A DNA stretch of 63,429 nt from Candidatus Woesearchaeota archaeon (GTDB lineage: Archaea; Nanobdellota; Nanobdellia; Woesearchaeales; JAGVZT01). The notes beneath the pieces are model-generated. The model was not told the origin of the DNA. It searched no databases and saw only the letters and a program-made list of their open reading frames with translations. A program made the position numbers and the translations under genes. Location: contig JBDRLT010000015.1 in NCBI GenBank assembly GCA_043812815.1, positions 1 to 63,429 of the forward strand, written 5' to 3'. Shown in pieces: positions 4,506 through 25,899 of this stretch (positions within the stretch are counted from its first letter, which is position 1; each line of letters opens with the position of its first letter).

Positions 4506-4892
4506 ATGAAGGTTAAAGAGTGCGTTTTGATTAAACCTCTGGTTTGCCAGAGGGGTGCGACAGTGGTTGAGGTTGCGAGGATTTTGAGGGACAATAAGCA
4601 GCGGAGAGCTGTTGTTGTTGATAATGGCAAGCCTATTGGAATTGTGTCAACAACTGATTTGAGCAACAAGGTGGTTGCAGGTGCGATGGATGCGATGCTT
4701 AAGGTGGAGGATGTGATGACCTCGCCAATTTACTTGACATGCGATATCGATGATGAACTCAATGAGATTTTTAAGAGGATGGTGAATCACGAGTCCTTTT
4801 TTTGCCCTGTTACCGAGCATGGTAAATTGGTGGGGATCCTAACTTACGGTGAACTTATTAGCAAGGTAAAGAGGGTTATGAATGAAGGTTGA
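4506..4892 (+). CDS. CBS-domain pair protein
   Basis: Two CBS-like repeats (PIGIVSTTDL, LVGILTYGELI). ATG at 4506 lies 3 nt after the patatin stop. Confidence 0.8.
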   Translation: MKVKECVLIKPLVCQRGATVVEVARILRDNKQRRAVVVDNGKPIGIVSTTDLSNKVVAGAMDAMLKVEDVMTSPIYLTCDIDDELNEIFKRMVNHESFFCPVTEHGKLVGILTYGELISKVKRVMNEG

Positions 4893-5712
4893 CCTTCCAG
4901 AAGGTGTTGGAAGAAAGTTGGGCTGGCTCACCCTTAGATCTGGGTTTCAAAGGATTTATGATGAGCTTAGGGGTGCTGAGGGTAGCTTTAGTAAGGATAT
5001 TACTACTAGAGTTATGGGAACTAAAGCATCTGACGCAGATTTGGGCATAGGCGGAATTACCCTTGAGGAGATAGCCAGGCAAAATGGATTGGAGGAGGAG
5101 TTTGGCCAATACATTAGGAGTGATATTATTGGTGGAATTAGGGGCAGAACTGCGTATGCGCTTGATCTAGTTACATCGATGAAGGACAGCCTTGAGGATG
5201 CTGTGGAATTGGCTGAAGTTGGAGGGAGCGCAGCAAGTGCAGTAACTGGCGCAGGACCTATTGTTATTCAGATTGGCGGAAACACTTTTGAGGTTCCACT
5301 CTATGTTGCAGTACAGACTGTGTATACTACTCTGGCTACGTTGCTTGGGTATGTTTCAGGCACTTACACTCTTACTGCCAAAGGCACTGTCAACTATATC
5401 TCAGATACTATTAAGGGAATGGGTGTTATTGGAAATGCAATTCCTCTTCTGGGAAGCATTTTTGAGTTTGGAACTAATCTTGATGATAAAAGGGACAGAA
5501 TTGCAGAGGCTTCTGCGCAGCGCGCTTCAGTATGGTTGATTAACAAGATTAGAGAGAAGAAGGGCTTACCAGTGCTTGAGCAGCCACGCGACCTTGTGGG
5601 GATTATTGGCACATTGGGAAGTAAGCTGAGAAGGAATGGATCCCTGAGTGATTATGAGGACAAGCAGATTTATGGGAGTGATATCTCTGCATCACCATAC
5701 CAGAGGATTTAG
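4882..5712 (+). CDS. hypothetical protein with G/A-rich hydrophobic segments
   Basis: ORFan by eye. VGGSAASAVTGAGPIVIQIGG and GMGVIGNAIPLLGSIF segments. Start overlaps the CBS gene stop. Confidence 0.55.
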   Translation: MKVDLPEGVGRKLGWLTLRSGFQRIYDELRGAEGSFSKDITTRVMGTKASDADLGIGGITLEEIARQNGLEEEFGQYIRSDIIGGIRGRTAYALDLVTSMKDSLEDAVELAEVGGSAASAVTGAGPIVIQIGGNTFEVPLYVAVQTVYTTLATLLGYVSGTYTLTAKGTVNYISDTIKGMGVIGNAIPLLGSIFEFGTNLDDKRDRIAEASAQRASVWLINKIREKKGLPVLEQPRDLVGIIGTLGSKLRRNGSLSDYEDKQIYGSDISASPYQRI

Positions 5713-5752
5713 GGAAATGTTTAAATACGCCTAGCTGAATTTTTATGTAGAG

Positions 5753-6724
5753 GTGATTGGCTTGATAGATAAGGAGAATATGTTGTTTGTTCTTGATGAT
5801 TTCCCTCAGCAGATAGTCAAAGGATTTGAGCTTGGCGAAAAGGTTAATGTTAATGGGGCTTTCAAAAATATTGTGTTCTCTGGTATGGGCGGGTCTGGGC
5901 TGCCAGGGGATATTGCAAGGACTTTATTAAGGGATAGGTGTGATATTCCTGTGATTTCACAGAAGGACTATGGGCTGCCCAAGTTTGTGAGCAAGGATAC
6001 TCTGTTTTTTGCTGTCTCTTATTCTGGGAATACTGAAGAGACTCTGGATGCGTATAGGGTAGCCAGAGGGAAAGGGTGTACTATTGTGGCAATTTGCAGT
6101 GGGGGCAAACTGAGGGAGATTGCTGAGAAGGATAATGTTGCGCACATTGTTGTGCCGACTGCTGTTGCTGCGCGCACTTCTATTGGGTATATGTTTTTTG
6201 CAGCATTGCGGGTTTTGGTGAATTCAGGAATAGTCAAGGAAGATGTTAATGGTATTGCAGAGAAATTGCAGAACCCTGATTTTAAGATGAAGGGTGAAGA
6301 GCTTGCTTCGAGCATTATGAACAAGATCCCAATTATCTATGCCTCTGAGGCAATGGGGGTGGCAGCGCTGGTTTGGAAGGTTTGCTTTAATGAGTCTGCA
6401 AAAATTCCCTCTTTTGTCAATGTGTTTCCTGAGCTCAACCACAATGAGTTGATGGCATATACCAAGCCCCAGGAGAAATTCCATGTGATTTTTATTAGAG
6501 AGGATGACTGCAGCAGGCAGCTAGCCAAGAGGTTTAAGATGACCCGAGATCTCATTTCAAGCAAGGTGAGCACTACTGAGATGGTGGTAAAAGGAAATGG
6601 ACAGCTGCTCAAGCTCTTTTCTGCTATCTATATCGGCTACTGGACATCGTATTTCCTGGCTTTGAAGTACAGAGTGGATCCTGCTGATACCAAGCTGCAA
6701 GCAGAGTTTAAGAAGAAGCTTTAA
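5753..6724 (+). CDS. bifunctional phosphoglucose/phosphomannose isomerase (SIS domain)
   Basis: GMGGSG, VSYSGNTEET and the C-terminal isomerase-domain pattern. GTG start as listed; an alternative ATG is at 5780. Confidence 0.8.
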   Translation: MIGLIDKENMLFVLDDFPQQIVKGFELGEKVNVNGAFKNIVFSGMGGSGLPGDIARTLLRDRCDIPVISQKDYGLPKFVSKDTLFFAVSYSGNTEETLDAYRVARGKGCTIVAICSGGKLREIAEKDNVAHIVVPTAVAARTSIGYMFFAALRVLVNSGIVKEDVNGIAEKLQNPDFKMKGEELASSIMNKIPIIYASEAMGVAALVWKVCFNESAKIPSFVNVFPELNHNELMAYTKPQEKFHVIFIREDDCSRQLAKRFKMTRDLISSKVSTTEMVVKGNGQLLKLFSAIYIGYWTSYFLALKYRVDPADTKLQAEFKKKL

Positions 6725-6748
6725 ATAATATCTATGGTTTTTTTTTGC

Positions 6749-6836
6749 GGGCTCGTGGTCTAGCGGCTATGACATCGCCCTTACACGGCGGAGGTCGCCG
6801 GTTCAAAAGCATAAACTGAAAGTCCGGCCGGGCCCA
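6749..6836 (+). tRNA. tRNA-Val(TAC) with T-loop intron
   Basis: Acceptor GGGCTCG/CGGGCCC plus discriminator A. Anticodon loop CTTACAC (TAC at 6782-6784). T arm GCCGG-TTCAAA[6808-6822]T-CCGGC. Confidence 0.85.
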
Positions 6837-6838
6837 TT

Positions 6839-7276
6839 TTAAAAGAATATTCTGAAGATTATGAAGTTGAATAGTATTGCGCCTGCGTCAAACATGAAAA
6901 GGCTGAAAAAATCACGCTCCCCTATCCAGAGTGATATGCTATCGCTTAGCAGACAGAAAATAATGACTGTTGCTATACCTGCAATCTTAGCTTGGATACC
7001 GCTTTGGAATGCAAATGCCCCAATTAGGCCGACTATTCCACAGAGCACTGTGTTGATGATGGTGTGCATGCCAAAGTCCAGGGTCATAGCATAGTAAGAT
7101 AGCATGAAGAGTAGCCCAATGTAAAAGCCTGTCTTGAAGCCAAACCAGTAGCCTGCAAGGAAGGCACCTGTCAATGTGAAATCGATTCCTGCAGCTACTC
7201 TGCTGAGTGCTCTAAACTTGTTCAGAACGTATAGATTCAGTAAAAATATTCCCAACAGTATGAACGCTTTAACCAT
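6839..7276 (-). CDS. hypothetical membrane protein (4-5 TM)
   Basis: 145 aa, almost entirely hydrophobic helices; lies between two tRNA genes. Confidence 0.55.
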   Translation of the reverse strand: MVKAFILLGIFLLNLYVLNKFRALSRVAAGIDFTLTGAFLAGYWFGFKTGFYIGLLFMLSYYAMTLDFGMHTIINTVLCGIVGLIGAFAFQSGIQAKIAGIATVIIFCLLSDSISLWIGERDFFSLFMFDAGAILFNFIIFRIFF

Positions 7277-8168: not shown

Positions 8169-9059
8169 TTACTCAGTGATTTTCGACCACACTGGTGCTT
8201 TTGTCCTGCATTGACTTATAATGGGATTACCCTGGTTTATGGATACTATTGCGCCGCTGTATTGGAATCCATGGGCATTTCCAGGAGAAATATAAAACAC
8301 AGGAATACTAACTCTGAACACTAAAGTTGGGAATGGATATTTTTTGTCACTAACCCCTGGATGTGCATCATGCGAAAAAACATATTCAAGATTTTCTCGT
8401 GGAATAGAATAATGACGATAAAGAATTACAAATCCCTTCCGGGCAATCGCTTCAATTATCTCGGCTTCACCAGTTGCTCGGCTAAATGGCTTTGGCAGAG
8501 CTTTGGCGATTGCCTCATACGGTATGCCCAGGTGTTTTCCCATTTGCCTAAGGACTCTTGCTGCACGTATTGGAGTTGGGTAATGGACTCTGTTTGAGGT
8601 TTCCACTGTGCCTAAGGCAAAAGGCTCAATATCTTTCCATTCTCCTGAATACAATGTACGAACTTCATCAGCCTTGACACGTCCCCTGAAATCCTCAATA
8701 AAATTGCTTCCTGTTCTAGCTATTCTTTCCAGGAATCCAACCTGGAACCCTTCCAGAAGTATTCCAACTAAATCAGGGAGATACTGTGCAAGAATATTGC
8801 TTGGTTCTTTTGGAAAGAACTCAAACAGGCCATAATGAGCAAGTCTACCACTGTCGTAGATAGGCAGTTCACTTAACCCTTTTAGATTTAATTTAAAGTC
8901 TGGGAACATAACGATGGATGTTACTGCAAGGTCAATTGCACTTAGCGAAAATAGTGGTACAGCAATTCGCTGCGTAAGCAATACGCGGATTTCGCCATTA
9001 AAAAATTCAACTTTATCTCCCTCTAATTTAACCTAGGGGATGATATCTTCCACAGCCAT
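8169..9059 (-). pseudogene. hypothetical protein gene interrupted by in-frame TAG at codon 9
   Basis: ATG at 9059 lies 23 nt downstream of a TTTATATA box. MAVEDIIP-TAG(9033-9035)-VKLEGDKVEFFNGEIRV continues in frame into listed ORF 8169..8981. Confidence 0.5.
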
Positions 9060-9121: not shown

Positions 9122-9650
9122 TCAACTTGAAATCAGAAATCTTAGTAACACTCCAACTGTTCTATCCTCTTTAATATCGCCATTCAAGCACATCGTCTTG
9201 ACTTCATCAAAGGTTTTCCATTCTGGCTTGATTACTTCTCCTAGTTCTGGTTTTTGAGATCCAGCTACAAATTTGTCGACTATAAAATAATAGAGATCCC
9301 ATTCGATTGTGGCGCCGGCATGGGTTGTGCAGTAATGCTTAATGTTCTGGGCAATCAAGCCGGTTTCGTCTTGGCATTCTTTATGCGCTGCTTTTGTGTG
9401 CGTTGTATTCGTCCAGAGTGTCAAATACTTTGCCTCCTGGAAGCCTCCAGTCATAACCATTTAACTCATGCCTGTATTCGTGGGTGAGCAGCATTTTATG
9501 GTCATTAAGAATAATTAGCCTGATTCCTGGTGCTCTTCTGACAATCTCAAAGTCAAATGTTTTCGAGCCTGCCTGCATTGGCTGACTGAGCACTTCAAAA
9601 ATTTTGCCTGAGTATAGCTTTTTTTCTTGTCCTGCTTTTGCCAGCTTCAT
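9122..9650 (-). pseudogene. Nudix hydrolase gene with frameshift
   Basis: N-terminal part (MKLAKAG...WRLPGGKVFDTLDEYNAHK) and Nudix box (AAHKECQDETGL) are in different frames. The switch coincides with an A4/T4 run at about 9392-9395. Confidence 0.65.
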
Positions 9651-10062: not shown

Positions 10063-11619
<1,557 letters not shown>

Positions 11620-11621
11620 TT

Positions 11622-11630
11622 TTTTCCGAC
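11622..11630 (+). other. 3' arm of 16S processing stem
   Basis: TTTTCCGAC is complementary to 10017-10025. Confidence 0.55.
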
Positions 11631-11726
11631 TTTTTTCCATAACTTTATAAACTTATACTTATTCCATATAAAAAGAGAGTTTTGCGACTCTCATTCTTAT
11701 CCCGCAGCGGGGGACAAGCGCTGGAT

Positions 11727-11843
11727 GGGCTCGTAGCTCAGTTGGTAGAGCGTCGCCCTTGCAGACTTTATGTCAGGAGAGGCGGAGGCCTCGGGTTCAA
11801 AAAGTGTTTGCACTAGCAATCCTTGAATTTCCCGACGAGTCCA
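11727..11843 (+). tRNA. tRNA-Ala(TGC) in rRNA spacer, two introns
   Basis: Acceptor GGGCTCG/CGAGTCC gives the G3:U70 Ala identity pair. TGC at 11760-11762. Inserts at 11764-11779 (37/38) and 11802-11829 (59/60). Confidence 0.8.
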
Positions 11844-11942
11844 TTCAAAAGTTTTCATGATCACAAATTCACATGGGCTCAGCATTGTATGATGCTGATC
11901 CTTACGGTTGAAACGTGATGTTTATGAGGCCATGCATAGTTA

Positions 11943-14855
<2,913 letters not shown>

Positions 14856-14888
14856 TAGTTCTTATCTTAACTATGCATGGCTTTCATA

Positions 14889-14896: not shown

Positions 14897-14960
14897 GTTG
14901 TTTTAATTAACAGTGTGAACTCTGTTATTTTTGATATAACAAGTAAGGAATAGTAGTAAA

Positions 14961-15240
14961 TGTTCCCGCGGCTTCAAGCACGTATATGCAGAGCGTGCGC
15001 TAAAATACTGTTTTTTTGAAGATGATTTTAGGGTCGCTTACGAAGAGCTTTCTCAACAGATAATCGTAAGCTCCGCAAGCATGCTGAAGTCCTATGCTGT
15101 ACAACAAGCAAGGGAAATTCAGTTAATGCTCCCGCTGCTTCAAGCAAATAAGTGCAGTTTGTGGGTCAAAAAAAATTTTGAAAATAATTATTAGGTCGCT
15201 TAAGATGACTGCCAAATTAAGCTCCGCAATTGCATATGAA
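14961..15240 (+). repeat. imperfect tandem repeat, period about 166 bp (two units)
   Basis: Shared blocks TG(T/C)TCCCGC(G/T)GCTTCAAGCA (14961, 15127), TAGG(G)TCGCTTA (15030, 15192) and AAGCTCCGCAA (15068, 15218). Confidence 0.7.
15194..15212 (+). repeat. 19-nt direct repeat, copy 1
   Basis: GGTCGCTTAAGATGACTGC; 17 of 19 nt identical to 15823-15841. Confidence 0.6.
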
Positions 15241-15400
15241 TTATTCTGATTTTATTGCGAAAATATTGTTTGTTTTTCTGTTTTTGTGAATAGTTTTTGG
15301 TTTTATTAGAAATATCTCTATTCTACTCGGAAATCCTACGGACTTTCTGGAATAATTCTGATTAAAGGCAGAGTGCATTATTGTTTTTGAGGTGATGGTT

Positions 15401-15817
15401 ATGAGGCTTACTGAAAGGACAGATCTTGATAAGATGGCTGAGGAGTGGTTTCCAGTGAGTGTTGAGGGCAAGGGGATGGGGATGTTGTGCTGCGGCTATG
15501 GTTTGGAGCTTGGCTTGTGTGAAGATCCAAGGTATGTATGGAGACCTTATGATGGTGTTAACAAAATCCGTGATGGACATGGAAATCTCAGAACTTTTAG
15601 TTGGGATGGCAAGGAAAAGATTATGGATGCAGCTAACAGGGGTATGAGGCCTTTTGAAGTGCTAATTGAGGAGGAGCATGCCAGGCTACGGGTGCAATTT
15701 CCAAAAGTGGCTAAAATGCTTGATCTGCCTGTGCAGGAGTGGGATTTGTATATAGCGGCGCATAAGCTGCAGTATGTATATAAATCGCAAGGCGGTGTCG
15801 CAACTCGTGTTGAATAA
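15401..15817 (+). CDS. hypothetical protein (ORFan)
   Basis: ATG at 15401 lies 6 nt after GAGGTG (listed ORF begins at GTG 15392). No motif recognised. Bracketed by the 19-nt direct repeat. Confidence 0.55.
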   Translation: MRLTERTDLDKMAEEWFPVSVEGKGMGMLCCGYGLELGLCEDPRYVWRPYDGVNKIRDGHGNLRTFSWDGKEKIMDAANRGMRPFEVLIEEEHARLRVQFPKVAKMLDLPVQEWDLYIAAHKLQYVYKSQGGVATRVE

Positions 15818-15822
15818 TTTCT

Positions 15823-15841
15823 GGCTGCTTAAGATGACTGC
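15823..15841 (+). repeat. 19-nt direct repeat, copy 2
   Basis: GGCTGCTTAAGATGACTGC, immediately after the stop of the 15401 ORF. Confidence 0.6.
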
Positions 15842-15909
15842 AGCGAGAGTTGTGCAAACGCGACATATTGGCTAATTCGTCACCAGCTAGTGATAATGTT
15901 ACCGAAAGA

Positions 15910-15919
15910 TTTAAATATA
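15910..15919 (+). promoter_or_regulatory. TATA box upstream of the 15976 gene
   Basis: TTTAAATATA preceded by CCGAAAG. GGAGG lies 9 nt before the ATG at 15976. Confidence 0.45.
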
Positions 15920-15975
15920 AGTGCTACTTCTTAGTACTCAACATGATATTAGTAAACAAATGGAGGTTATGAAAA

Positions 15976-16965
15976 ATGAGTGATTTTGGAAGAAAATTTT
16001 TGAGGGCGATAGGCGTGGAATATCAGCCTAGTGAACAGGAAATCAAGCTAGCAGAAGAGATGGGAAGAGCAACTGAGGAGAAAATTGCAGCAGATATGGC
16101 AAGAGATGTTGAGGAGGAAATGGCTGAAAATATAATGCAATACAATAATGACATGCGAGCTTTTGGTGTAATGCAGGAACAAGTACCTAACCAGGTGAAA
16201 GAAAAATTAATGGTTTCTTTGGTGCAGGCTGTTTATGGCTTGAGTGCTTTGCCTAACAGCGATGTTCTAAGTCCTAAGGTTGTTGAAACATTAGCAGACT
16301 ACCAGGCTAGCGGAGAATATCCTCAACTATATACGGAAGGTATGGCTGCTAGAGATATGTTATGGAGAACAATCGCAGAAATGACAAGGAATATTACATA
16401 TAGAGAAGTACATCAGATTGGTGTAGCAAAGGATGTTCTTGTCTCAGCTGGCGCAAGCGGACTTCCTTCATCCGAAGCTGTTAAGGCTGGTTTTGCTGGT
16501 TACAGAAAGGAAGTTGTAAAGGAATTAGGAAGGCAAGAAAAGGATGTAAAAGACCAGGTAGGTGCTTTGTATAGGATAGAGCACAACAGAATCAACGACA
16601 AAGATGACGCAGTTGCTTTGGTACAAAGAGCATTTAGAGACAATGTTTTTGCTGACGTGCAAATTGGCGGTTTGTATACACTTGCCAGAGAACTTTCAAA
16701 AGTGCTTGGCGCATGTAAGGTTATCCGACCTGGAGAAGCAGGATTCCAGCCAATAAAACAAAATCTGGATTATGCGGTAGAGGAAGCTCAACAGGCAATG
16801 GATACAGGATATGCGTTGCAGCAAACCCTTGGAATAAGCCGTCCTGAATATGGCGAGCCTATGACAATTGATGAGTTTGCAGCCAACCCATGCATGCCTT
16901 ACTCTGTATTGGAAATGAATGCAGTGGGTGGTGCGTTGTACTGGAGGCAGAGTGCAACAAAGTAA
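15976..16965 (+). CDS. hypothetical protein (ORFan), acidic helical N-terminus
   Basis: 329 aa. EQEIKLAEEMGRATEEKIAADMARDVEEEMAEN, then a mixed alpha/beta-looking sequence. No motif recognised. Confidence 0.65.
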   Translation: MSDFGRKFLRAIGVEYQPSEQEIKLAEEMGRATEEKIAADMARDVEEEMAENIMQYNNDMRAFGVMQEQVPNQVKEKLMVSLVQAVYGLSALPNSDVLSPKVVETLADYQASGEYPQLYTEGMAARDMLWRTIAEMTRNITYREVHQIGVAKDVLVSAGASGLPSSEAVKAGFAGYRKEVVKELGRQEKDVKDQVGALYRIEHNRINDKDDAVALVQRAFRDNVFADVQIGGLYTLARELSKVLGACKVIRPGEAGFQPIKQNLDYAVEEAQQAMDTGYALQQTLGISRPEYGEPMTIDEFAANPCMPYSVLEMNAVGGALYWRQSATK

Positions 16966-16993
16966 TTTTTTATTTTTTTAAAGAGGTGAAAAA

Positions 16994-18136
16994 ATGCCAA
17001 ATATCTTTCAGAGGTTTAGAAGACCACAGGTAGTTGAAGCTGTAGTCGAACCTACAATCGAAGATGTAATTGCAGCAGGGATGAACTGCAGCGCTTTGAT
17101 GCGAGAGCTTTATGCTGACAGTGTTGCGGCTCCTGTTAAAGTTGGTGCTTACATACATTTTTCTTCAGGGATTAATGTTGTTAACTTGGGGGGTGTTGAG
17201 GTTAGTTTCCCTCTTGCAGATGGAGGAAGTGAGAGACTAAGGGGTGTACCTATACGTATTCGCCATGTTGCAAAAGCTGCGCTTGATCAGGTTGTTGCAG
17301 GAAGATATGCCGAGATCGGTGCTGTTTTCGATCAATTGAATAATCTTGGTGAAACAAGAGCCGCGTCTCCTCAAGAATATGTAACATTTTATAATAATGC
17401 TGTACCATTGGTGCAAGCTGTTATTGGTGAGCATGATATTGCCAAAGCTAGGTTGACTGCAAGTATTGACTTAGGTATGCTTGGTGGGCAGCTTAGAAAT
17501 TTGGAGGCTATTGCAAGTAGTTTAGAGCTTAGAGGGGCTCAAGATACCAAGAGAACTAAGGTATTGCAGTATTTCAGAGAACAAATTGGGTATGTTGAAG
17601 AATTAGCTCAAGTTGGCTCTGTACAGGATGCAAGTTTAGATTTGAGGACAACTGCCATTTATTTTTCAGGATATGCACCTGGGTTTGATGCTGAGGGGTA
17701 TTTAGAAAGAGCTGGACAGGGTAGTATGATTTCCCGGCTGCTCCAAAGGTTTAGGCGCCTAAGAGTAACACCTGAAACAATTGTTTCAGACGATGATAAG
17801 CCTGTTGTATTTGACAACCTACTGTTTGAAGCATACAGATCGTTTGAGACAGCATATGTAACGCGTACTGGAAGGCGAGATAGAGTTTATTTCGGCGAAG
17901 CTCAAAAGTGTGCTGGGTGGACTCATGAGTTTATGGTCCAGCCCGACTATACTCCTGCTGAATTAGGCCAAATTGCGAGAGCAACATATGGATTGATATG
18001 CAATGCCAGAAATGCCTGTGATGGCCTTCCCGCAACAATGTGGGAAGTGGGTGGTGCTGTTAATAGGATACTTGCTGCAAATAGCAATATGCCCTTTGGA
18101 GACAGAATGGCAGATATCCAAAGCAATTATGTATGA
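16994..18136 (+). CDS. hypothetical protein (ORFan) with repeated QRFRR motif
   Basis: 380 aa. IFQRFRRPQVVE at residues 4-15 and LLQRFRRLRVTPE near residue 250. GAGGTGA lies 7 nt upstream of the ATG. Confidence 0.65.
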   Translation: MPNIFQRFRRPQVVEAVVEPTIEDVIAAGMNCSALMRELYADSVAAPVKVGAYIHFSSGINVVNLGGVEVSFPLADGGSERLRGVPIRIRHVAKAALDQVVAGRYAEIGAVFDQLNNLGETRAASPQEYVTFYNNAVPLVQAVIGEHDIAKARLTASIDLGMLGGQLRNLEAIASSLELRGAQDTKRTKVLQYFREQIGYVEELAQVGSVQDASLDLRTTAIYFSGYAPGFDAEGYLERAGQGSMISRLLQRFRRLRVTPETIVSDDDKPVVFDNLLFEAYRSFETAYVTRTGRRDRVYFGEAQKCAGWTHEFMVQPDYTPAELGQIARATYGLICNARNACDGLPATMWEVGGAVNRILAANSNMPFGDRMADIQSNYV

Positions 18137-18170
18137 AGTTTATAGAATAGAAACAAGCCTGTAAATAAAT

Positions 18171-18881
18171 TTATGTCTTTCCTCTTCCCTTGCTTGCAGA
18201 TACACTTCCCGAAGTACCAGAGGATGCAGCGGCACTGGCGGCCGCAACTGCGGTTCCTGTAATTTTAGTCACTGCAGCTTCTAACTCAGGAATAGCAGTT
18301 TCAACCTCATTAATTTTTGCAAGGATTTTTCTTTTCCTGCCAGCTAGTATGCTATGCCAACCAATATATTGACCTAATCTTGAATGTGCCTGAATTATGT
18401 TATCAATCTGAGTCTCAAGTTGATCCAAGCTAACAAGTGCAGGGTTCTTTGACCAAGTTTCAAATGTAGCAATAAAATTTTGAAGAGCAGCTAATTCACC
18501 GTCAAGACCAGGTAGAACTTTATCTCGTAAGGTTTTGGTTTCTTGAAAATCTCGTATTTGGAGACCATTTAGCATGCCATTAAGCTCATTATACAATTTT
18601 ACAGCCTCAGTAGCCATCCTTTCCGCTTCCCTAAGCTTATCTTGAACATCCTGAGGAAAGTCTTTGCCACCTTTTATTAATTTATCAACATCATCTCTAA
18701 TTTTTTTAACTTCTGCTTCCTTTTTGAGTGCTGAATGCAGACGCATCTCTTGTTCAGCAAGACCCTTGAGCGCATTACGAACATTATTAATTTCCTTATG
18801 TAAAAACTCTACTGCTGCTTTAGAGTCTCGGGAGACTCTTGCAGTAAATTGACTTACAATAGCTTGAACTTGTTGGCTCAT
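18171..18881 (-). CDS. coiled-coil protein with Ser/Ala/Gly-rich C-terminal tail
   Basis: 236 aa with heptad-rich sequence. Tail TGTAVAAASAAASSGTSGSVSASKGRGKT. Start overlaps the upstream stop (ATGA). Confidence 0.65.
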   Translation of the reverse strand: MSQQVQAIVSQFTARVSRDSKAAVEFLHKEINNVRNALKGLAEQEMRLHSALKKEAEVKKIRDDVDKLIKGGKDFPQDVQDKLREAERMATEAVKLYNELNGMLNGLQIRDFQETKTLRDKVLPGLDGELAALQNFIATFETWSKNPALVSLDQLETQIDNIIQAHSRLGQYIGWHSILAGRKRKILAKINEVETAIPELEAAVTKITGTAVAAASAAASSGTSGSVSASKGRGKT

Positions 18882-19324
18882 CGTCCGTACCTGTCGTTTA
18901 GTTCTTTCATCTGTTGTATAGCTTGCTTTATTGATTGAAGATGCGCCATATTCTGGCGCCAGTCACTAACTATTGAAGATGTCAGCTGGTTGTTTATTTC
19001 TTGATAATCACTAATCATCTTTCTCTCGTCTTTAGATACTCCACTGATGGTGTCACCAAGGCCTTTAATCTTCTGCCATGTTTCACCAAAGCTTTCTACT
19101 TTCTGCTGCGCAAGATCAACATTTCCAACTGTAAATCCTTTGTAAATATCGTACACAACGAGTAAGTATAATAGTCCTTTAACTAGTCCACCCAGACTTT
19201 GCATGAAAGTAAGCTCAATTCCGCTTATCTCAAAGGCAGTGTCTGTTGCACCACCTTGAGCGAAGACTATACCCACAAATAGTGCAAACATTACAAAGTA
19301 TGTCAAATGTTTCATTTTTTCCAT
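18878..19324 (-). CDS. secreted/membrane-anchored protein with coiled-coil C-terminus
   Basis: Signal-peptide-like MKHLTYFVMFALFVGIVFA-QG, a second hydrophobic helix GGLVKGLLYLLVVY, then a helical tail. Confidence 0.6.
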   Translation of the reverse strand: MEKMKHLTYFVMFALFVGIVFAQGGATDTAFEISGIELTFMQSLGGLVKGLLYLLVVYDIYKGFTVGNVDLAQQKVESFGETWQKIKGLGDTISGVSKDERKMISDYQEINNQLTSSIVSDWRQNMAHLQSIKQAIQQMKELNDRYGR

Positions 19325-19908
19325 TTTTCTGTTAATTTAGATACTATTAGTGGTATGAAAATCGGCGATGGAAAGCTTCTTGCCCATAAATCAATCCTGG
19401 ACACTATCCAAATTAGTGCCATAATAATAAGTGCCCGTATGAAATGCTCCATTTTATTGGTGGGTTTCCATTTAACGTACATTGCCCAGACAATAAAAAC
19501 AGGTACTCCGAAAAGCAGAGGGAGCAGTACCAGCGAAGTGTATTGAACTGCAATCAGTCTAAGCAAATCACTTGGTGTAAGAAGCATTACCATAACTGCA
19601 ATGCATAAACTGATTATAAGACAAACTCTCTTATTTGTAATAAATTTGGTTGTACCCCAATGGAAGATTGTGAAGACCATCAGCCAGAGCCCAAATCGTA
19701 AAAGTGCTATTAGCTGGTCAATACTCATTGTACCAGGAACCATGAAAATTTGAACAATTATTTGTATTGCGCTAGTTACTATAGTCCCAAGTTCAGCAAA
19801 AGGATTTCCAATAGGTGTGCCTGTTGGAGAACCTACTGGCCCTTGTGAATATACATTACTAATAAGAATAATTAGGAAGATGAAGATCAAGATTGCAGAC
19901 TTCTTCAT
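19312..19908 (-). CDS. multi-pass membrane protein with N-terminal signal peptide
   Basis: MKKSAILIFIFLIILISNVYS-QG, a Pro/Gly linker, then about 5 hydrophobic helices. First gene of the minus-strand operon. Confidence 0.6.
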   Translation of the reverse strand: MKKSAILIFIFLIILISNVYSQGPVGSPTGTPIGNPFAELGTIVTSAIQIIVQIFMVPGTMSIDQLIALLRFGLWLMVFTIFHWGTTKFITNKRVCLIISLCIAVMVMLLTPSDLLRLIAVQYTSLVLLPLLFGVPVFIVWAMYVKWKPTNKMEHFIRALIIMALIWIVSRIDLWARSFPSPIFIPLIVSKLTEKWKK

Positions 19909-20109
19909 TTATTCACCATTTTTTTTTGATTATTATACTTATTTGAAGCAGTGGTATATAAAATTTTTCTTTTTTGGCAGGGTTTTTGCTGTTTTTGATA
20001 TTAAATAGAGTGTTTTTTCTGCAGCCAAGACTGTTTATTACGATTGGAGCAGTGGTCTTGCGGTTTTTTGATAACAAGGCATTATTAGAATTGTATCCAA
20101 GATTACATT

Positions 20110-20586
20110 ATGAACTACAGACAAAGATTAGGGCTAAAGATCGGGTTGGGGGCGTTGGTGTTTACAGCAGGGGCTGCCAGTGCCTATATGGCTACTAAGC
20201 AGGAGGTTGCCAGGGTATTCTCAGAGCCTGTAACAACTGCTGTCAGGCAAGTTGATGAGCTTATGCTCACAAAAAGGCCTGATATCTATATAGATACACT
20301 TACTGATTATATTGTTGATAATCCTGCTGTGCTTGAACCATCTGATGTTTCTGGTCTGGTGCAGGCAATTGACACTGCAGACTTAGTTGATACAGCTACA
20401 AGGCAGGCGGTTTTTGAGAGTTCTGCAAGAAAGCTGGAGCCTGATTATGTTACTGATGTTGCTGAGAGTGTTTTCCCAAACGCAAGCAGGGAAAGAAAGG
20501 TTGGCCATTTTCTCTATACGCTGAAGGAAGTGGGAATAGAGTATCTTGATATAATGAAGAATAAAATTGAGGAGTTGAGAAAATGA
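20110..20586 (+). CDS. N-terminally anchored hypothetical protein
   Basis: Basic MNYRQR followed by TM LGLKIGLGALVFTAGAASAYMA, then a soluble acidic domain. Confidence 0.6.
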   Translation: MNYRQRLGLKIGLGALVFTAGAASAYMATKQEVARVFSEPVTTAVRQVDELMLTKRPDIYIDTLTDYIVDNPAVLEPSDVSGLVQAIDTADLVDTATRQAVFESSARKLEPDYVTDVAESVFPNASRERKVGHFLYTLKEVGIEYLDIMKNKIEELRK

Positions 20587-21566
20587 CACTGGATAATAAG
20601 GTGGACTTTGACTGGAAGCGCTTTGCAGAGGTTGACAAGAAAGTTGAAGAGTATTTAGTCAGTCCTTCATCCAGCCAGGAGATGCGGCAGGTCCAAGACA
20701 AAATAAACCTGGCTGCGATAGAGGCTGTTGCAGCTGAAAAGCCTAAGTGGCGGCGCGGATTGTATAGAACCTGGCTGGTGCTTTCTGGTAGGAATGCCTC
20801 TGAGATTATGCGGCAGCAGACCCAGGTGGTTGATGAGGTTATACAGCGAGGAGAGGAATATCTAGTTGAGGTTGAAAGAGACCTGCAGCGCTACAGCAGG
20901 AGGCGTATCTCTTTGCTTGAGGAGCTTACTGATCTTGGGGGAAAAGGTGAAGATCTGGAGTATGCGCTGAGGTGTTTTGACGAGCAGATTGCTGATACTG
21001 AGGGGCTGCTGGCGAATGCTGATCCTGCTGGACTTAGAAGCCTCAGCCAGGAGGTCAAAGCCAGAAGCAGGGTTGGGCTGCACAGGTATAAGGCTGAGCT
21101 TGTTGAGAAGAAGAGGAGAGTGCAGATTGAGTTGAGCAAGGCTTATGCCCATGCAATTGGTCTTGATGGTGAGCTTGTTGCTGCTGATGACATGCTTGTT
21201 TTTCTGGATGCGCAGTTCAATGCAGGCCAGGAGGATATGGGCAAGCAGATGGGCCATTTTGCCGGGATGTATCCTGGTGATTTCTCTGAGAGGCTCGGCC
21301 ATTTGATTAGGGCGCAGGCACTTGTTGAGGATGCTGAGGTTAGCATCAACAAGCGCACAAAGGTTGCGGGCAAGGTTGCAGAGGTTTTTGCTGACCATGT
21401 GGCTTACCTTAACCCAAAGCATCCGCAGCTGTATAGTTCTACAGAAATGAAGCAGGCAGTGGCTGAGATTAGGCAGGCAATGGATGAACGCGCAGACAGG
21501 GGCCAGAGTTATGCTGACACGTTAAGGGTTAATGGCAAGGCTGCCATAAATAAGCACCTGCTGTAG
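20583..21566 (+). CDS. long helical/coiled-coil hypothetical protein
   Basis: 327 aa, E/R/L/A rich. ATGA overlap with the upstream gene. TAG stop lies 1 nt before the AAA ATPase ATG. Confidence 0.65.
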   Translation: MTLDNKVDFDWKRFAEVDKKVEEYLVSPSSSQEMRQVQDKINLAAIEAVAAEKPKWRRGLYRTWLVLSGRNASEIMRQQTQVVDEVIQRGEEYLVEVERDLQRYSRRRISLLEELTDLGGKGEDLEYALRCFDEQIADTEGLLANADPAGLRSLSQEVKARSRVGLHRYKAELVEKKRRVQIELSKAYAHAIGLDGELVAADDMLVFLDAQFNAGQEDMGKQMGHFAGMYPGDFSERLGHLIRAQALVEDAEVSINKRTKVAGKVAEVFADHVAYLNPKHPQLYSSTEMKQAVAEIRQAMDERADRGQSYADTLRVNGKAAINKHLL

Positions 21567-21567
21567 G

Positions 21568-22893
21568 ATGGAAATCGCAATTACAGCCGAGGAGCTAGCG
21601 AGGGAAAGGCTTAGGCTTGATGATTTGGTGAACAGCCACAGTAATGCAATTAGGAACAAGCTGAATGGGAATGAAAAAAGCGTTGAGAGTATTTATGGCG
21701 GATTTGCTGTTGCTAAAATTCTGTGGCAGATGCTTGTGAAAGAGCAGCGGGTTGATAAAGTACAGGGAATGGCTGCTGCTGTTTGTCTTGGTGCCAATTA
21801 TGGGTTGCATGTGCTTGGAGTAAATCCTGGGGATGCAGGAGAGTTTTCTAAAGAAGTGGTTGATTATGGCAAGCCTTTTCCAGTGCCTTTGAATGAGCTG
21901 CTCGGGAAATATTCTGCTGCCCTAGATTATTGCCAAAGCGTAGATGGACTTACCCGTGCTTTTTTTTCATGGATGCGGGGTGCTGCTGAGCAGACAGGGG
22001 GTTTGCTTGCAGGCATTAAAGGGGAGATTGCTGATTATGCAATTGGTAGTGTAAAGAGCGGAAAAACCTGGGCTGATTTTGGCGGGTATGAGCATGCTGT
22101 GGCTTATCTTAAGGATATTGCATTGCTAATCGAGCATTATGATGAAGTTGAAGCCCTGCGTGTTTTGAAGCCAGGGGAGATTTTGCCAAGGGGTATTCTT
22201 TTTTACGGGCCGCCTGGCACTGGCAAGAGCAGTTTGGCAATGATATTCTGCTATGAGGTAGGCATCCCATTTTTTATGGTGAGCAAGCAGGATTTTGCTG
22301 ATCGTTATAAGGATGGTTCTTGTTTGTTAATGGCTGAGAAATGTAGAGAGGCTGAGGAGCCGATTCGAAAAAAGACTGCAGTAGCAAGTGTGCTTTATTT
22401 TGACGAGCTTGACAGCGTAGTTACAACACGTTCAGATAATGAGAATGCCCGGGAAGACAATAAGGTTGTTACCACCTTGGGCTTGCATATGGACGGGCCG
22501 AATGCAGTTGACAGACTGATTTTCATGGCCAGCACTAATAGGCCGGATATTATTGATCAAAGCTTGCTTAGGCCTGGAAGGTTTAGTGTTATGGTGTATA
22601 TGGGGTTGCCTAGCCTTGAAGGGCTAAAGGAAATATTCCCTATCTATTTGCGCGGAGCAGATGTTGATGTGGATGCGATTTTGGGGGAGTATGCTTTTGC
22701 TTCAGATGTTGCAGTGCCAGAAAGGGCAGTGGTGTGGAGTGGTGCTTTTGTGAAAGAACTGGTTATGGGAACTAAGCGGAGAAAGGTGCTTGATTATCTT
22801 AAGTCTGGCTCGGATTATCACATTTGCACAGGAGATATGGTGAGGGAAATTGAATTTTGCAAAAAAGGAAGCTACATTAATGCAGTTTTTTAG
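21568..22893 (+). CDS. classic-clade AAA+ ATPase with unique 190-aa N-terminal region, no protease domain
   Basis: Walker A GPPGTGKS, Walker B LYFDELD, second region of homology STNRPDIIDQSLLRPGRF. N-terminal region has a hydrophobic VQGMAAAVCLGANYGLHVLGV segment. Confidence 0.9.
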   Translation: MEIAITAEELARERLRLDDLVNSHSNAIRNKLNGNEKSVESIYGGFAVAKILWQMLVKEQRVDKVQGMAAAVCLGANYGLHVLGVNPGDAGEFSKEVVDYGKPFPVPLNELLGKYSAALDYCQSVDGLTRAFFSWMRGAAEQTGGLLAGIKGEIADYAIGSVKSGKTWADFGGYEHAVAYLKDIALLIEHYDEVEALRVLKPGEILPRGILFYGPPGTGKSSLAMIFCYEVGIPFFMVSKQDFADRYKDGSCLLMAEKCREAEEPIRKKTAVASVLYFDELDSVVTTRSDNENAREDNKVVTTLGLHMDGPNAVDRLIFMASTNRPDIIDQSLLRPGRFSVMVYMGLPSLEGLKEIFPIYLRGADVDVDAILGEYAFASDVAVPERAVVWSGAFVKELVMGTKRRKVLDYLKSGSDYHICTGDMVREIEFCKKGSYINAVF

Positions 22894-23170
22894 ATTATGG
22901 AGAGAGGACAAGGAACTGGTAGAAAGGGTTAGTGCTAACTACACTGAGTATTGCAGGCTTGCTGAGGCTGCCTGTACTGATTATTCTGGGGGTTTGCTTG
23001 CGAGGATTGAAGCAGAGGTTGGTGGCTGCTTTGGAGTTGAGGCAAGGTATAGGAGATTGCCTGTTGACAGGATACTGCCTGGGAGCAGTGCCAAGCTTGC
23101 AGCTGTGAAATCTCTGGAGAAGAAAGTTCATGATGCGAGAGTGCGGGCTGAAAGGTATAGGGTTGGCTAG
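22880..23170 (+). CDS. hypothetical helical protein (possibly the N-terminal part of a TAG-interrupted gene)
   Basis: ATG at 22880 overlaps the AAA gene end by 14 nt. Ends at TAG 23168-23170, with the frame staying open downstream. Confidence 0.5.
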   Translation: MQFFRLWREDKELVERVSANYTEYCRLAEAACTDYSGGLLARIEAEVGGCFGVEARYRRLPVDRILPGSSAKLAAVKSLEKKVHDARVRAERYRVG

Positions 23171-23266
23171 GTTGGATATGCTGAGCAGGAGCTGGCCAAC
23201 CAGAGTGAGCGTTATACAGGATATCTGAGTTATCTTGCTAAGGAGCGGCTGATTACTGCTGAGCAT

Positions 23267-23599
23267 GTGCAGACGCTTGCTGGCTTTGAGGTTGTGGATG
23301 GCTGCTTTCTGGAGCAGTGCAAGGAACAGGGCTTGGCAGAGGCTGCCTGCTACCTTGAGGGGCTGCATGTTGCATTTGCTGGCCAATTTGAGAGAGAGGT
23401 CGGCAGGGTGCGAGGTTATTTGGACACTAGAGTAGATGAGCTCAGCCTGGAGAAGTCAGGCAACTCATTAGAAGATCTTGATTTTTTTGTTAAGGTTATT
23501 GAGATGGCGATTACGATGTATAAGTTATTGAGGCTTCCGAGTTACAGAGCTGAGGAGGTGAAGCAATATCTCTCATCTCAGAAAGCAATAACTTACTAA
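23267..23599 (+). CDS. hypothetical helical protein (same frame as the 22880 ORF)
   Basis: Listed start is GTG. Codons 23171-23266 contain no stop and no in-frame ATG. Confidence 0.45.
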   Translation: MQTLAGFEVVDGCFLEQCKEQGLAEAACYLEGLHVAFAGQFEREVGRVRGYLDTRVDELSLEKSGNSLEDLDFFVKVIEMAITMYKLLRLPSYRAEEVKQYLSSQKAITY

Positions 23600-25161: not shown

Positions 25162-25899
25162 TTATACTGCGTCCTGTAATCGCAGAGATTGTGTGATTCT
25201 TGCTAGCCGATTGTATAATGTCCTCAGAATCTGCTCATCTTCCCAAGGAATTTCTGATTGCATTAGGAGCTTCACTTCTGATTCCATTAGTTGCAGCAAA
25301 CCACCGATTGCACGCAACTGTTCTGAGGAAGCCTTTAGGTAGTTACTCATATCCTTGGTCTCTTCTAAGGTAACGTTCTCAATTTGTTTTTCTTGATGTA
25401 CCATTTCGTCTGCAATTTTTCCAAGGTTCTGTGAAAGCTTTAAAAGTATTCTTCCCATCTGATCATATTTCGTTTTAGGGATTGTTTTACCTTGAGCTAA
25501 ACTAGCTTCTGCTTCAGCAAGACGTTGCTCTGCTTCAGCATATTCATTAAGGACTTCTTGATGTACATTTGGGTTTGTCCTAATATAAGGATAAGACTTG
25601 GATTTCCTGTCTAATTCGTCTAAATCTGATTTGGAATGTTTAAGCTCACTCCTCAGATCAAAGACTAGTTGCCGGGCCTGTGAAATCTCAATTTTTGCTG
25701 TTATGCTCAAAGTTTTGGCCATTCTTTGGATTTGAGTTGATGATCTCTTTAAATTTGCCCAGTGTGACCTTAAAATGTCTTTGAAAGCTTTCCAACTTCT
25801 TGCCCCACCAGCAATTTCTATCTCTCTAATATAAAGCTCCAATAATCTCTCTTTTTCATTTTTTTTTTTCAAGAATTGTCCTAACGGGAAGCCCTTCAT
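25162..25899 (-). CDS. coiled-coil hypothetical protein
   Basis: 245 aa, heptad-like (AEAEQRLAEAEASLAQ). No enzymatic motif. Confidence 0.55.
   Translation of the reverse strand: MKGFPLGQFLKKKNEKERLLELYIREIEIAGGARSWKAFKDILRSHWANLKRSSTQIQRMAKTLSITAKIEISQARQLVFDLRSELKHSKSDLDELDRKSKSYPYIRTNPNVHQEVLNEYAEAEQRLAEAEASLAQGKTIPKTKYDQMGRILLKLSQNLGKIADEMVHQEKQIENVTLEETKDMSNYLKASSEQLRAIGGLLQLMESEVKLLMQSEIPWEDEQILRTLYNRLARITQSLRLQDAV

Follow-up and report, generated by a model that had tools for sequence, protein, structure and literature searches.

Seven genes around a classic-clade AAA+ ATPase form a conserved DPANN-only module with alternative membrane and nuclease arms

Contig JBDRLT010000015.1 of a Candidatus Woesearchaeota archaeon assembly (GCA_043812815.1), analyzed here over positions 1–63,429 and called the window throughout, carries seven adjacent genes (18171–23599) that form one conserved module. 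The module is found in DPANN archaea only and is accessory rather than core. Its constant part consists of three genes in fixed order, encoding a helical protein (X), a AAA+ ATPase with its own N-domain and a coiled-coil partner (Y); the window pairs this core with a membrane arm, and most other family members pair it with an Mrr-like nuclease. An earlier note on the window, made from the letters of the DNA, had proposed a candidate undescribed membrane-associated machine around a classic-clade AAA+ ATPase, and conservation of the X-AAA-Y order in other DPANN genomes supports that proposal in part. No description of an X-AAA-Y module was found in the literature searched. The genomes of DPANN archaea are tiny and hold many unannotated genes, and to our knowledge very few multi-gene systems are defined as specific to this group. 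A role in conflict with viruses or mobile elements is tentatively proposed for this one.

All open reading frames (ORFs), overlaps and the divergent spacer listed in the earlier note were found at their coordinates, as was the rRNA neighborhood. The plus-strand operon opens with w158 (20110–20586), a small protein of the “anch” family whose N terminus carries an export/anchor signal, and continues with X (w327, 327 aa; 20583–21566), the AAA+ ATPase (21568–22893) and Y (22880–23599). The minus-strand operon encodes w198 (19312–19908), with a signal peptide and a polytopic membrane domain of ~5 transmembrane (TM) segments; w148 (18878–19324), which begins with a signal or TM segment and continues with another hydrophobic helix and a coiled coil; and w236 (18171–18881), a cytoplasmic coiled-coil protein with an S/A/G-rich tail. 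Between the two operons lies a divergent promoter region (19909–20109; 29% GC, against ~43% for the window) with TATA-like boxes in both directions, and this divergent layout is common to the window and to two of the compared loci, L006 and L016. ATGA overlaps are present at 20583 (w158/X) and, on the minus strand, at 18878 (w148/w236); X and the ATPase gene meet in a TAG-G-ATG junction (21564–21570), and overlaps of 14 nt (22880–22893) and 13 nt connect the AAA and Y genes and w198 and w148, respectively. The co-translation suggested earlier was borne out to the extent that these overlapping start and stop codons were confirmed in the DNA. For six of the block gene products, homologues in collinear order were recovered from other genomes, so the cluster exceeds what chance would give.

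When the block proteins were scanned against curated families (Pfam, PHROGs, NCBIfam, PADLOC), the AAA protein alone was matched, the rest being sub-threshold coiled-coil noise; the earlier reading of a single recognizable fold thus held, the fold being PF00004. No partner family of the module exists in Pfam, NCBIfam, PHROGs or PADLOC, and Pfam gave nothing above cutoff on homologues of the module partners.

As judged from its sequence, the central protein is a classic-clade AAA+ ATPase in which a family-specific helical N-domain (residues 1 to ~165) precedes one AAA module (residues ~166–441) whose catalytic motifs are all intact. The PF00004 match spans residues 210–346 (E=3e-25), and a weak match to AAA_5 was also seen (E=0.0066). 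Walker A (G214–K220), Walker B (D279/E280), the sensor-1 Asn (N324, of T323/N324) and the Arg finger (R338, in the RPGRF of the second region of homology) are invariant across 13 members of the family, as are F46, T129 and G173-Y174 among the N-domain positions. An aromatic pore-loop-1 residue (Tyr or Phe, usually with Val next) is present in 12 of the 13, being Y251 (DRYKDG) in the window; its position was assigned by alignment with the MFVG loop of FtsH.

A full-length search with the AAA protein returned mostly Cdc48 proteins aligned over the AAA module alone (~45% coverage), the exception being two 475-aa Woesearchaeota proteins with 87–88% query coverage. When the N-terminal 205 residues were searched exhaustively with phmmer in 1.84 billion representative proteins, an N-domain family of only 15 clusters emerged at E<=1e-3, all of 420–500 aa. 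Where the source names the host, it belongs to the Woesearchaeota, Nanoarchaeota or Aenigmarchaeota, all DPANN, and the database annotation of every member is either hypothetical or generic ATPase. In the AlphaFold2 monomer model (predicted local distance difference test, pLDDT, 84.8), the N-domain is a ~160-aa five-helix bundle that also has a small beta hairpin, and a canonical AAA module with its lid comes after it. Foldseek with the whole model against PDB and viral models matched the AAA module alone (Cdc48/p97, FtsH, PAN and Rpt; TMq ~0.5). NCBIfam scores were 111 bits for FtsH, 97 for PAN, 96 for Cdc48 and 53.5 for CdvC, all far under the family cutoffs; the protein thus belongs to a distinct classic-clade family. 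The N-terminal region had been described as unique, free of a protease domain and carrying a hydrophobic segment. The first two points stood, Pfam finding no protease domain (no M41); the third did not stand as a membrane feature, because the hydrophobic stretch lies below the hydropathy threshold and is modeled as a buried helix (pLDDT ~87–91), and no TM helix was found in the protein by hydropathy scan.

For the gene context, neighborhoods of AAA family members were scanned with hidden Markov models (HMMs) built from alignments of the module proteins. The order X-AAA-Y was seen in every locus with enough sequence, namely the window, L002–L005, L006, L008, L009/L010, L011/L012, L014/L015 and L016, and the short contig L007 carries partial X and partial Y. 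The earlier note had held that a lack of synteny in any other genome would speak against a module; as synteny is conserved in other DPANN genomes, that objection falls away.

The X family is full-length (327–358 aa) and encoded directly 5' of the AAA gene wherever the sequence reaches. Window X aligned with its counterparts in L006 and L008 at 1e-25 and 2e-29, and X HMM matches were obtained in L002–L016. Single-sequence and 8-sequence profile searches with X in 5.8 billion proteins returned the window protein and one homologue only; these searches were near-empty because coiled-coil words saturate the candidate list, and the X homologues came from gene context. The AlphaFold2 model of X, built on a seven-sequence alignment, has an overall pLDDT of 65, with a core formed by a ~100-Angstrom antiparallel helical hairpin (H72–143 and H163–227; pLDDT ~80–90). 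Foldseek with this model gave nothing at E<=1e-3 (best E=0.055); the top matches were generic antiparallel coiled coils (Smc arms, EnvC, PcsB, p85 iSH2 and chemoreceptors), and Vipp1 came at rank 39 (E=0.46; TM-score 0.2). When profiles of X, Y, the w158 and membrane families and the w236 pair were run against all PDB sequences, nothing significant came back. In L016, an apparent 768-aa ORF unites the X and AAA genes (4761–7067), and a run of N (a scaffold gap) there marks the merger as an assembly artifact and not a fusion.

Members of the Y family share a conserved N-terminal region of ~100 aa and, outside the window, are 409–635 aa long. The “one or two” proteins previously counted downstream of the ATPase proved to be one Y gene, a 239-codon frame split by an in-frame TAG (23168–23170): both halves match a single protein, l409 of L006, collinearly (1e-4 and 1e-5), and give 6e-26 and 3e-28 against the Y HMM. 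Window Y is without the central ~170–400 aa found in its relatives. In the L006 orthologue a Glu codon stands opposite the TAG, as would fit one GAG-to-TAG change; in the window TAG serves as a normal stop (11 of 45 long ORFs), and the next possible start 3' of it is a GTG at 23267. The codon could reflect a fresh pseudogene, a sequencing error or readthrough, and, given the shortened Y and the premature TAG, the window copy of the module may be decaying. Two further observations concern Y. The L014 (Aenigmarchaeota) protein is 574 aa long, carries GSGKS, a P-loop-like motif, and matches AAA_22 only weakly (L014 2267–5717). In the window, a 48-nt direct repeat, 73% identical, joins the AAA N-domain coding region (21986–22033; TGGLLAGIKGEIA) and the Y N terminus (22977–23024; SGGLLARIEAEVG); it could be chance or a common peptide motif.

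The arm attached to this core comes in two subtypes. The membrane subtype consists of a ~160–175-aa w158-family protein just 5' of X together with a divergent w198-family operon, and is seen in the window, L006 and L016; the L008 sequence ends upstream. Homologues of w158 lie immediately upstream of X in L006 (6e-7), L008 (7e-12) and L016 (4e-11) and share the motif YID..T....NP. Their N termini, as read off the alignment, resemble an export/lipobox-type signal, with AxA in the window and IAGC and AGSC in relatives; of the N-terminally anchored protein described earlier, therefore, the N-terminal signal remained and the plain anchor did not. No PDB relatives were found for w158, and its interpretation as a degenerate Mrr_cat was rejected (hhalign probability 0.8%).

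By hydropathy, w198 has a signal peptide and ~5 TM segments, with an invariant His155. Its homologues are l216 and l195 of L006 (3e-8) and, in L016, the N-terminal 235 aa of two fusion proteins (4e-15 and 1e-14); it has no Pfam or PDB relatives. These fusions, paralogues of 605 and 617 aa, make up the L016 divergent operon; each begins with a signal peptide and five TM helices and continues through a Gly-rich linker into a coiled coil of ~300 aa. Together, w198, w148 and w236 come to 582 aa, against 605 aa for the shorter fusion. On this pattern w148, which is homologous to l121 of L006 (BLASTP 1e-5; jackhmmer 1.8e-48), is probably the last TM helix and proximal tail of a split membrane protein, and w236 is probably the distal tail of the same membrane/coiled-coil protein. 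No sequence homologue of w236 was detectable in 44 loci by homology scan; w236 and l232 of L006 occupy equivalent positions. Weak similarity of w236 to l232 and to the L016 fusion tails was measured by Smith-Waterman shuffle (z=4.7–5.2, with one control coiled coil at z=4.2), and BLASTP of w236 against a fusion tail was collinear over residues 9–199 (E=0.07). Comparison of the w148 and w236 pairs with the L016 fusions by hhalign, on two-sequence profiles, was not significant. With these profiles and the control z=4.2, the split-gene reading is solid for w198 and architectural only for w148 and w236.

The membrane family has three known occurrences, all divergent from and adjoining the AAA module, and a scan with the L016 fusion protein recovered itself alone. 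Matches of w236 to Syntaxin, Rad50 and LmuB were all below cutoff and look like coiled-coil noise. Two minus-strand genes of L006 (4609–5712 and 5697–6284) have no counterpart in the window: between them they encode the second w198-family paralogue, l195, and, within the divergent operon, a protein of 367 aa that is anchored at its N terminus and contains a poly-(Asn-Thr) repeat.

Loci of the nuclease subtype (L002–L005, L009–L012 and L014/L015) encode a small protein anchored at its N terminus and a stand-alone Mrr_cat. The latter occurs in 5 of the independent loci and resembles the Mrr-like modules of ZorD (E=1.5e-5) and of type IV restriction enzymes; its PD-(D/E)xK motif is intact (D..ExK), with D44 and E61-x-K63 invariant in L002–L005, L009–L012 and L014. 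No Mrr_cat ORF was found in the window by HMM scan, and homology of the small TM proteins of this subtype to w148 or w158 was not supported. In L014, Y is followed by a second ORFan of 582 aa and then by Mrr_cat, which thus lies downstream of the core and not upstream. An AsnC-type regulator is encoded just upstream in one locus of each subtype (L002 and L006), and HTH_17 and toxin-antitoxin-like genes lie near some loci. Directly 3' of Y in L008 (4481–5603) is a toxin-antitoxin-like pair, a winged helix-turn-helix nucleotidyltransferase (MNT) gene and a HEPN gene; the MNT gene matches the PADLOC candidate PDC-M05A at 4e-8.

The module is rare, patchy and fast-evolving. In a scan anchored on DtdA, whose gene flanks the block, 27 Woesearchaeota and Nanoarchaeota neighborhoods were compared (best DtdA identity 64%, which puts the window among DPANN of the Woesearchaeota type), and the module lay within 10 kb of DtdA in two of them, both on contigs already known. 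Beyond the module there is no synteny between the window and the DtdA relatives, so insertion boundaries are not definable from this comparison. The link between DtdA and the module is kept in three genomes with DtdA proteins 54–56% identical; the module proteins are 25–33% identical where DtdA is 54% identical. Scans of genomes, metagenomes and viruses with AAA peptides and N-domain patterns added one locus (L016), none of it viral, and the metagenome scan gave no new module locus. Alignments of the wider N-domain family and of the membrane family diverged too far for scan patterns to be drawn from them. Several TPA_asm metagenome-assembled genomes (MAGs) bear the title “uncultured Methanosarcinales archaeon” (L006/L025, L016/L022, L018, L027 and others); their DtdA is closest to that of Woesearchaeota/Nanoarchaeota MAGs, and they have the DPANN-only module as well. 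The “Methanosarcinales” labels are probably wrong.

Classic-clade AAA+ members thread, unfold or disassemble protein substrates chosen by their N-domains. From this biology we infer that the family N-domain engages X and/or Y. A predicted AAA+ ring would contact X and/or Y through this domain and would remodel or disassemble an X/Y coiled-coil assembly by ATP-driven threading, and such remodeling could gate the variable arm, which is a membrane protein in the window subtype and a nuclease in the other. The likeliest role, at a rough probability of 0.35, is that of a conflict system (antiviral or anti-mobile-element, abortive-infection-like) and not of housekeeping membrane remodeling. A constant NTPase core, a nuclease-or-membrane arm, patchiness, rapid divergence, local regulators and a decayed Y in the window together resemble conflict systems more than housekeeping genes.

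Several observations weigh against a conflict role. Beyond the generic AAA domain, no component matches a known defense model, the IetA match (8e-20) covering the AAA domain only, and the window flanks are housekeeping genes and an rRNA operon with no defense island. Contact of the ATPase with X or Y is inferred from gene order alone, and the link of w148 and w236 to the fusion tails rests on position, architecture and weak similarity. Patchiness was gauged in the 10 kb nearest DtdA only, and the genomes concerned could carry the module at another site. DPANN MNT-HEPN pairs usually occur in housekeeping contexts (PMC6393860), so the neighbor of Y in L008 is weak evidence. It is possible, if doubtful, that X-AAA-Y with its swappable arm constitutes an unrecognized DPANN-specific class of archaeal conflict system, in which an unfoldase acts as the switch that remodels coiled-coil sensors or scaffolds, or else an equally new membrane machine of ultra-small symbionts.

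A housekeeping-type machine for membrane remodeling or polymer disassembly, like Vps4 with ESCRT-III or like PspA/Vipp1, would have X, Y and/or w236 polymerize on a membrane and be recycled by the AAA+ protein. The analogy had been drawn in the earlier note, and it agrees with a classic-clade AAA+ protein accompanied by several hairpin or coiled-coil proteins and membrane proteins in coupled operons, as well as with the small membrane-anchored protein present in both subtypes. It did not survive comparison with the known systems: the ATPase has no MIT domain by Pfam and reaches 53.5 bits against the NCBIfam CdvC cutoff of 650, no Snf7-fold or PspA_IM30 domain was found by Pfam among the partners and their homologues, PDB profile searches gave noise, and the X model has no fold match, with Vipp1 well down its Foldseek ranking. 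The module is also rare and patchy, and the Mrr nuclease in most loci would be left unexplained. A remodeling machine is unlikely.

Membrane-protein extraction or quality control of the FtsH, Msp1 or Cdc48 kind would instead have an AAA+ protein recruited by X/Y pull a w198-type protein, or its coiled-coil tail, from the membrane. The AAA module scores best against FtsH, PAN and Cdc48, the structural matches fall in the same group, and the long cytoplasmic tail of the membrane protein could act as a handle. The ATPase has neither protease domain nor TM anchor, however, its scores are far below the family cutoffs, the Mrr subtype is without a polytopic membrane protein and the distribution is patchy, which makes extraction rather improbable.

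The other suggestion of the earlier note, a DPANN cell-surface or host-contact apparatus, is quite improbable. The family is DPANN-restricted, and w198 and w158 carry signal peptides or export signals, but little more than ~40 aa of w198 and ~130 aa of w158 is predicted to lie outside the cell, and almost all of the protein mass, with the coiled coils, X, Y and AAA protein, is predicted to be cytoplasmic. The patchy module is absent from 25 of the 27 related DtdA neighborhoods, and the nuclease subtype, to which most family members belong, does not fit.

That the block is what remains of a virus, plasmid or other mobile element once integrated here, which the earlier note likewise did not favor, is very improbable: the ORFan run, the patchiness, AAA-domain matches to PHROG families of unknown function, the slightly higher GC of the X and AAA genes (0.49 at 21–22 kb) and the HTH_17 and toxin-antitoxin-like genes near some loci could speak for it, but no gene for an integrase, capsid, terminase or replication protein came up in the Pfam and PHROG scans, no att-like repeats bracket the block, 2.9 million viral contigs and 50,697 phage records contain no relatives, viral structure matches by Foldseek cover the AAA module alone, and the DtdA link is kept in three divergent genomes.

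Outside the seven genes, three further ORFs of the block lie between the rRNA genes and the module, and none is supported as a member of it. The first encodes w141, a 141-aa ORFan (15392–15817, plus strand; ATG options at 15395 and 15401), with no family match (Pfam, PHROGs, NCBIfam, PADLOC) and no homologue in the 44 loci; it does not belong to the conserved module. The other two, w329 (15976–16965, plus strand; 329 aa, with a GGAGGT motif 5' of its ATG) and w380 (16994–18136, plus strand; 380 aa), had been noted as large soluble ORFans converging on the cluster; as such they were confirmed, and they appear lineage-specific, but their membership was not upheld, since neither has a homologue in the 44 loci. 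Relatives of w329 and w380 were likewise absent among phages and viral contigs, and w380 has no match in the four family collections. The sole match of w329, to Major_capside (PF09950), was rejected, as it covers residues 10–55 only, scores 15.9 bits against a cutoff of 26.8 and comes without viral relatives.

The window is archaeal, and its rRNA operon (10063–14875) lies directly upstream of the gene block, with the small-subunit gene at 10063–11617 and the large-subunit gene at 11935–14875. The small-subunit match measures 1555 nt against a 1478-position model, which suggests insertions. No 5S rRNA was found after the 23S gene, and ARAGORN over the whole window (1–63429), the 317-nt 16S-23S spacer included, gave zero tRNA genes. 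Ordinary genes flank the block, encoding a serine hydrolase, DtdA, NIF3 and aRF1. Just 3' of the 23S gene is a ~166-nt tandem duplication (within 14955–15290; 14955–15005 versus 15121–15171, 75% identical), and the exact 15-mer GCTTAAGATGACTGC stands as a direct repeat on either side of w141 (15198–15212 and 15827–15841, 629 nt apart), with no further close copies in the window; neither element matches an Rfam family. More ORFans without a Pfam match lie on both sides of the rRNA/DtdA region (6839–7276, 8169–8981, and, on the minus strand, 9122–9460 and 25162–25899), with zero relatives in the compared loci; among them is a 245-aa coiled-coil-like protein that adjoins DtdA.

What looked like an ORFan cluster is now a testable module, with an ATPase family defined by its N-domain, two obligate partner families and two alternative arms, and the natural L016 fusion shows which membrane components belong together. 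These families are open to modeling, tracking in metagenomes and expression for biochemistry. Should the module serve defense, it would add a classic-AAA-based architecture to archaeal immunity in a group whose defenses are little mapped; as a membrane machine, it would count as a new AAA-driven coiled-coil system belonging to neither the ESCRT nor the PspA family.

Among known systems, Cdc48/p97, FtsH and PAN gave the best sequence and structure matches and share with the AAA module Walker A and B, sensor-1, the Arg finger and the aromatic pore loop. The protein differs from them in having one AAA module, without the double-psi-barrel, the M41 protease, a TM anchor or the PAN-type coiled coil with OB fold, and its ~165-aa helical N-domain matches nothing known; its 96–111 bits compare with cutoffs of 500–800 for these families. 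Neither the double-psi-barrel N-domain and tandem D1-D2 of Cdc48/NSF (TIGR01243, 96 bits against 803) nor the N-terminal TM and C-terminal M41 of FtsH (TIGR01241, 111 bits against 600) was found. With Vps4/CdvC and ESCRT-III/CdvB, and with PspA/Vipp1, the module shares a logic of AAA+ protein, helical-hairpin proteins and membrane; it differs from ESCRT-III and PspA in the hairpin helices of X, which are 65–72 residues long. For a SNARE/NSF arrangement, w236 scores 21.7 bits against Syntaxin, under the cutoff of 26.7, and has no SNARE-domain match and no C-terminal TM helix.

Other parallels come from defense. Lamassu pairs a coiled-coil ATPase with swappable effectors, Mrr-type nucleases included; the present module differs in having no SMC or ABC ATPase head, and its matches to LmuB (E>=2.5e-4) amount to coiled-coil noise. 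Of the PADLOC models, IetA matches the AAA domain best (8e-20), but there is no IetS protease partner here. In PADLOC overall, the AAA domain alone matches IetA or TRIP13 and the coiled coils match LmuB and ZorA at E>=2.5e-4, and the full signature sets of IetAS, Lamassu, Zorya and CBASS-TRIP13 were not found (no IetS, LmuA, LmuC, ZorB or HORMA). Zorya, like the module, has a polytopic membrane protein whose long cytoplasmic tail is a coiled coil, and the sister-locus nuclease resembles its Mrr-like ZorD module. The membrane domain here has no MotA/ExbB/TolQ homology, ZorB is missing and the motor is of the classic AAA+ type, so the likeness is one of architecture only. McrBC differs in that McrB is a GTPase of another AAA+ clade, whereas here the motor is a PF00004 ATPase, there is no McrC, and Mrr_cat is stand-alone and absent from the window subtype. 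Type IV restriction systems of the McrBC/CoCoNuT kind nevertheless combine an AAA+-superfamily NTPase, extensive coiled coils and a PD-(D/E)xK nuclease (PMC11090510), as do the sister loci of the module described here.

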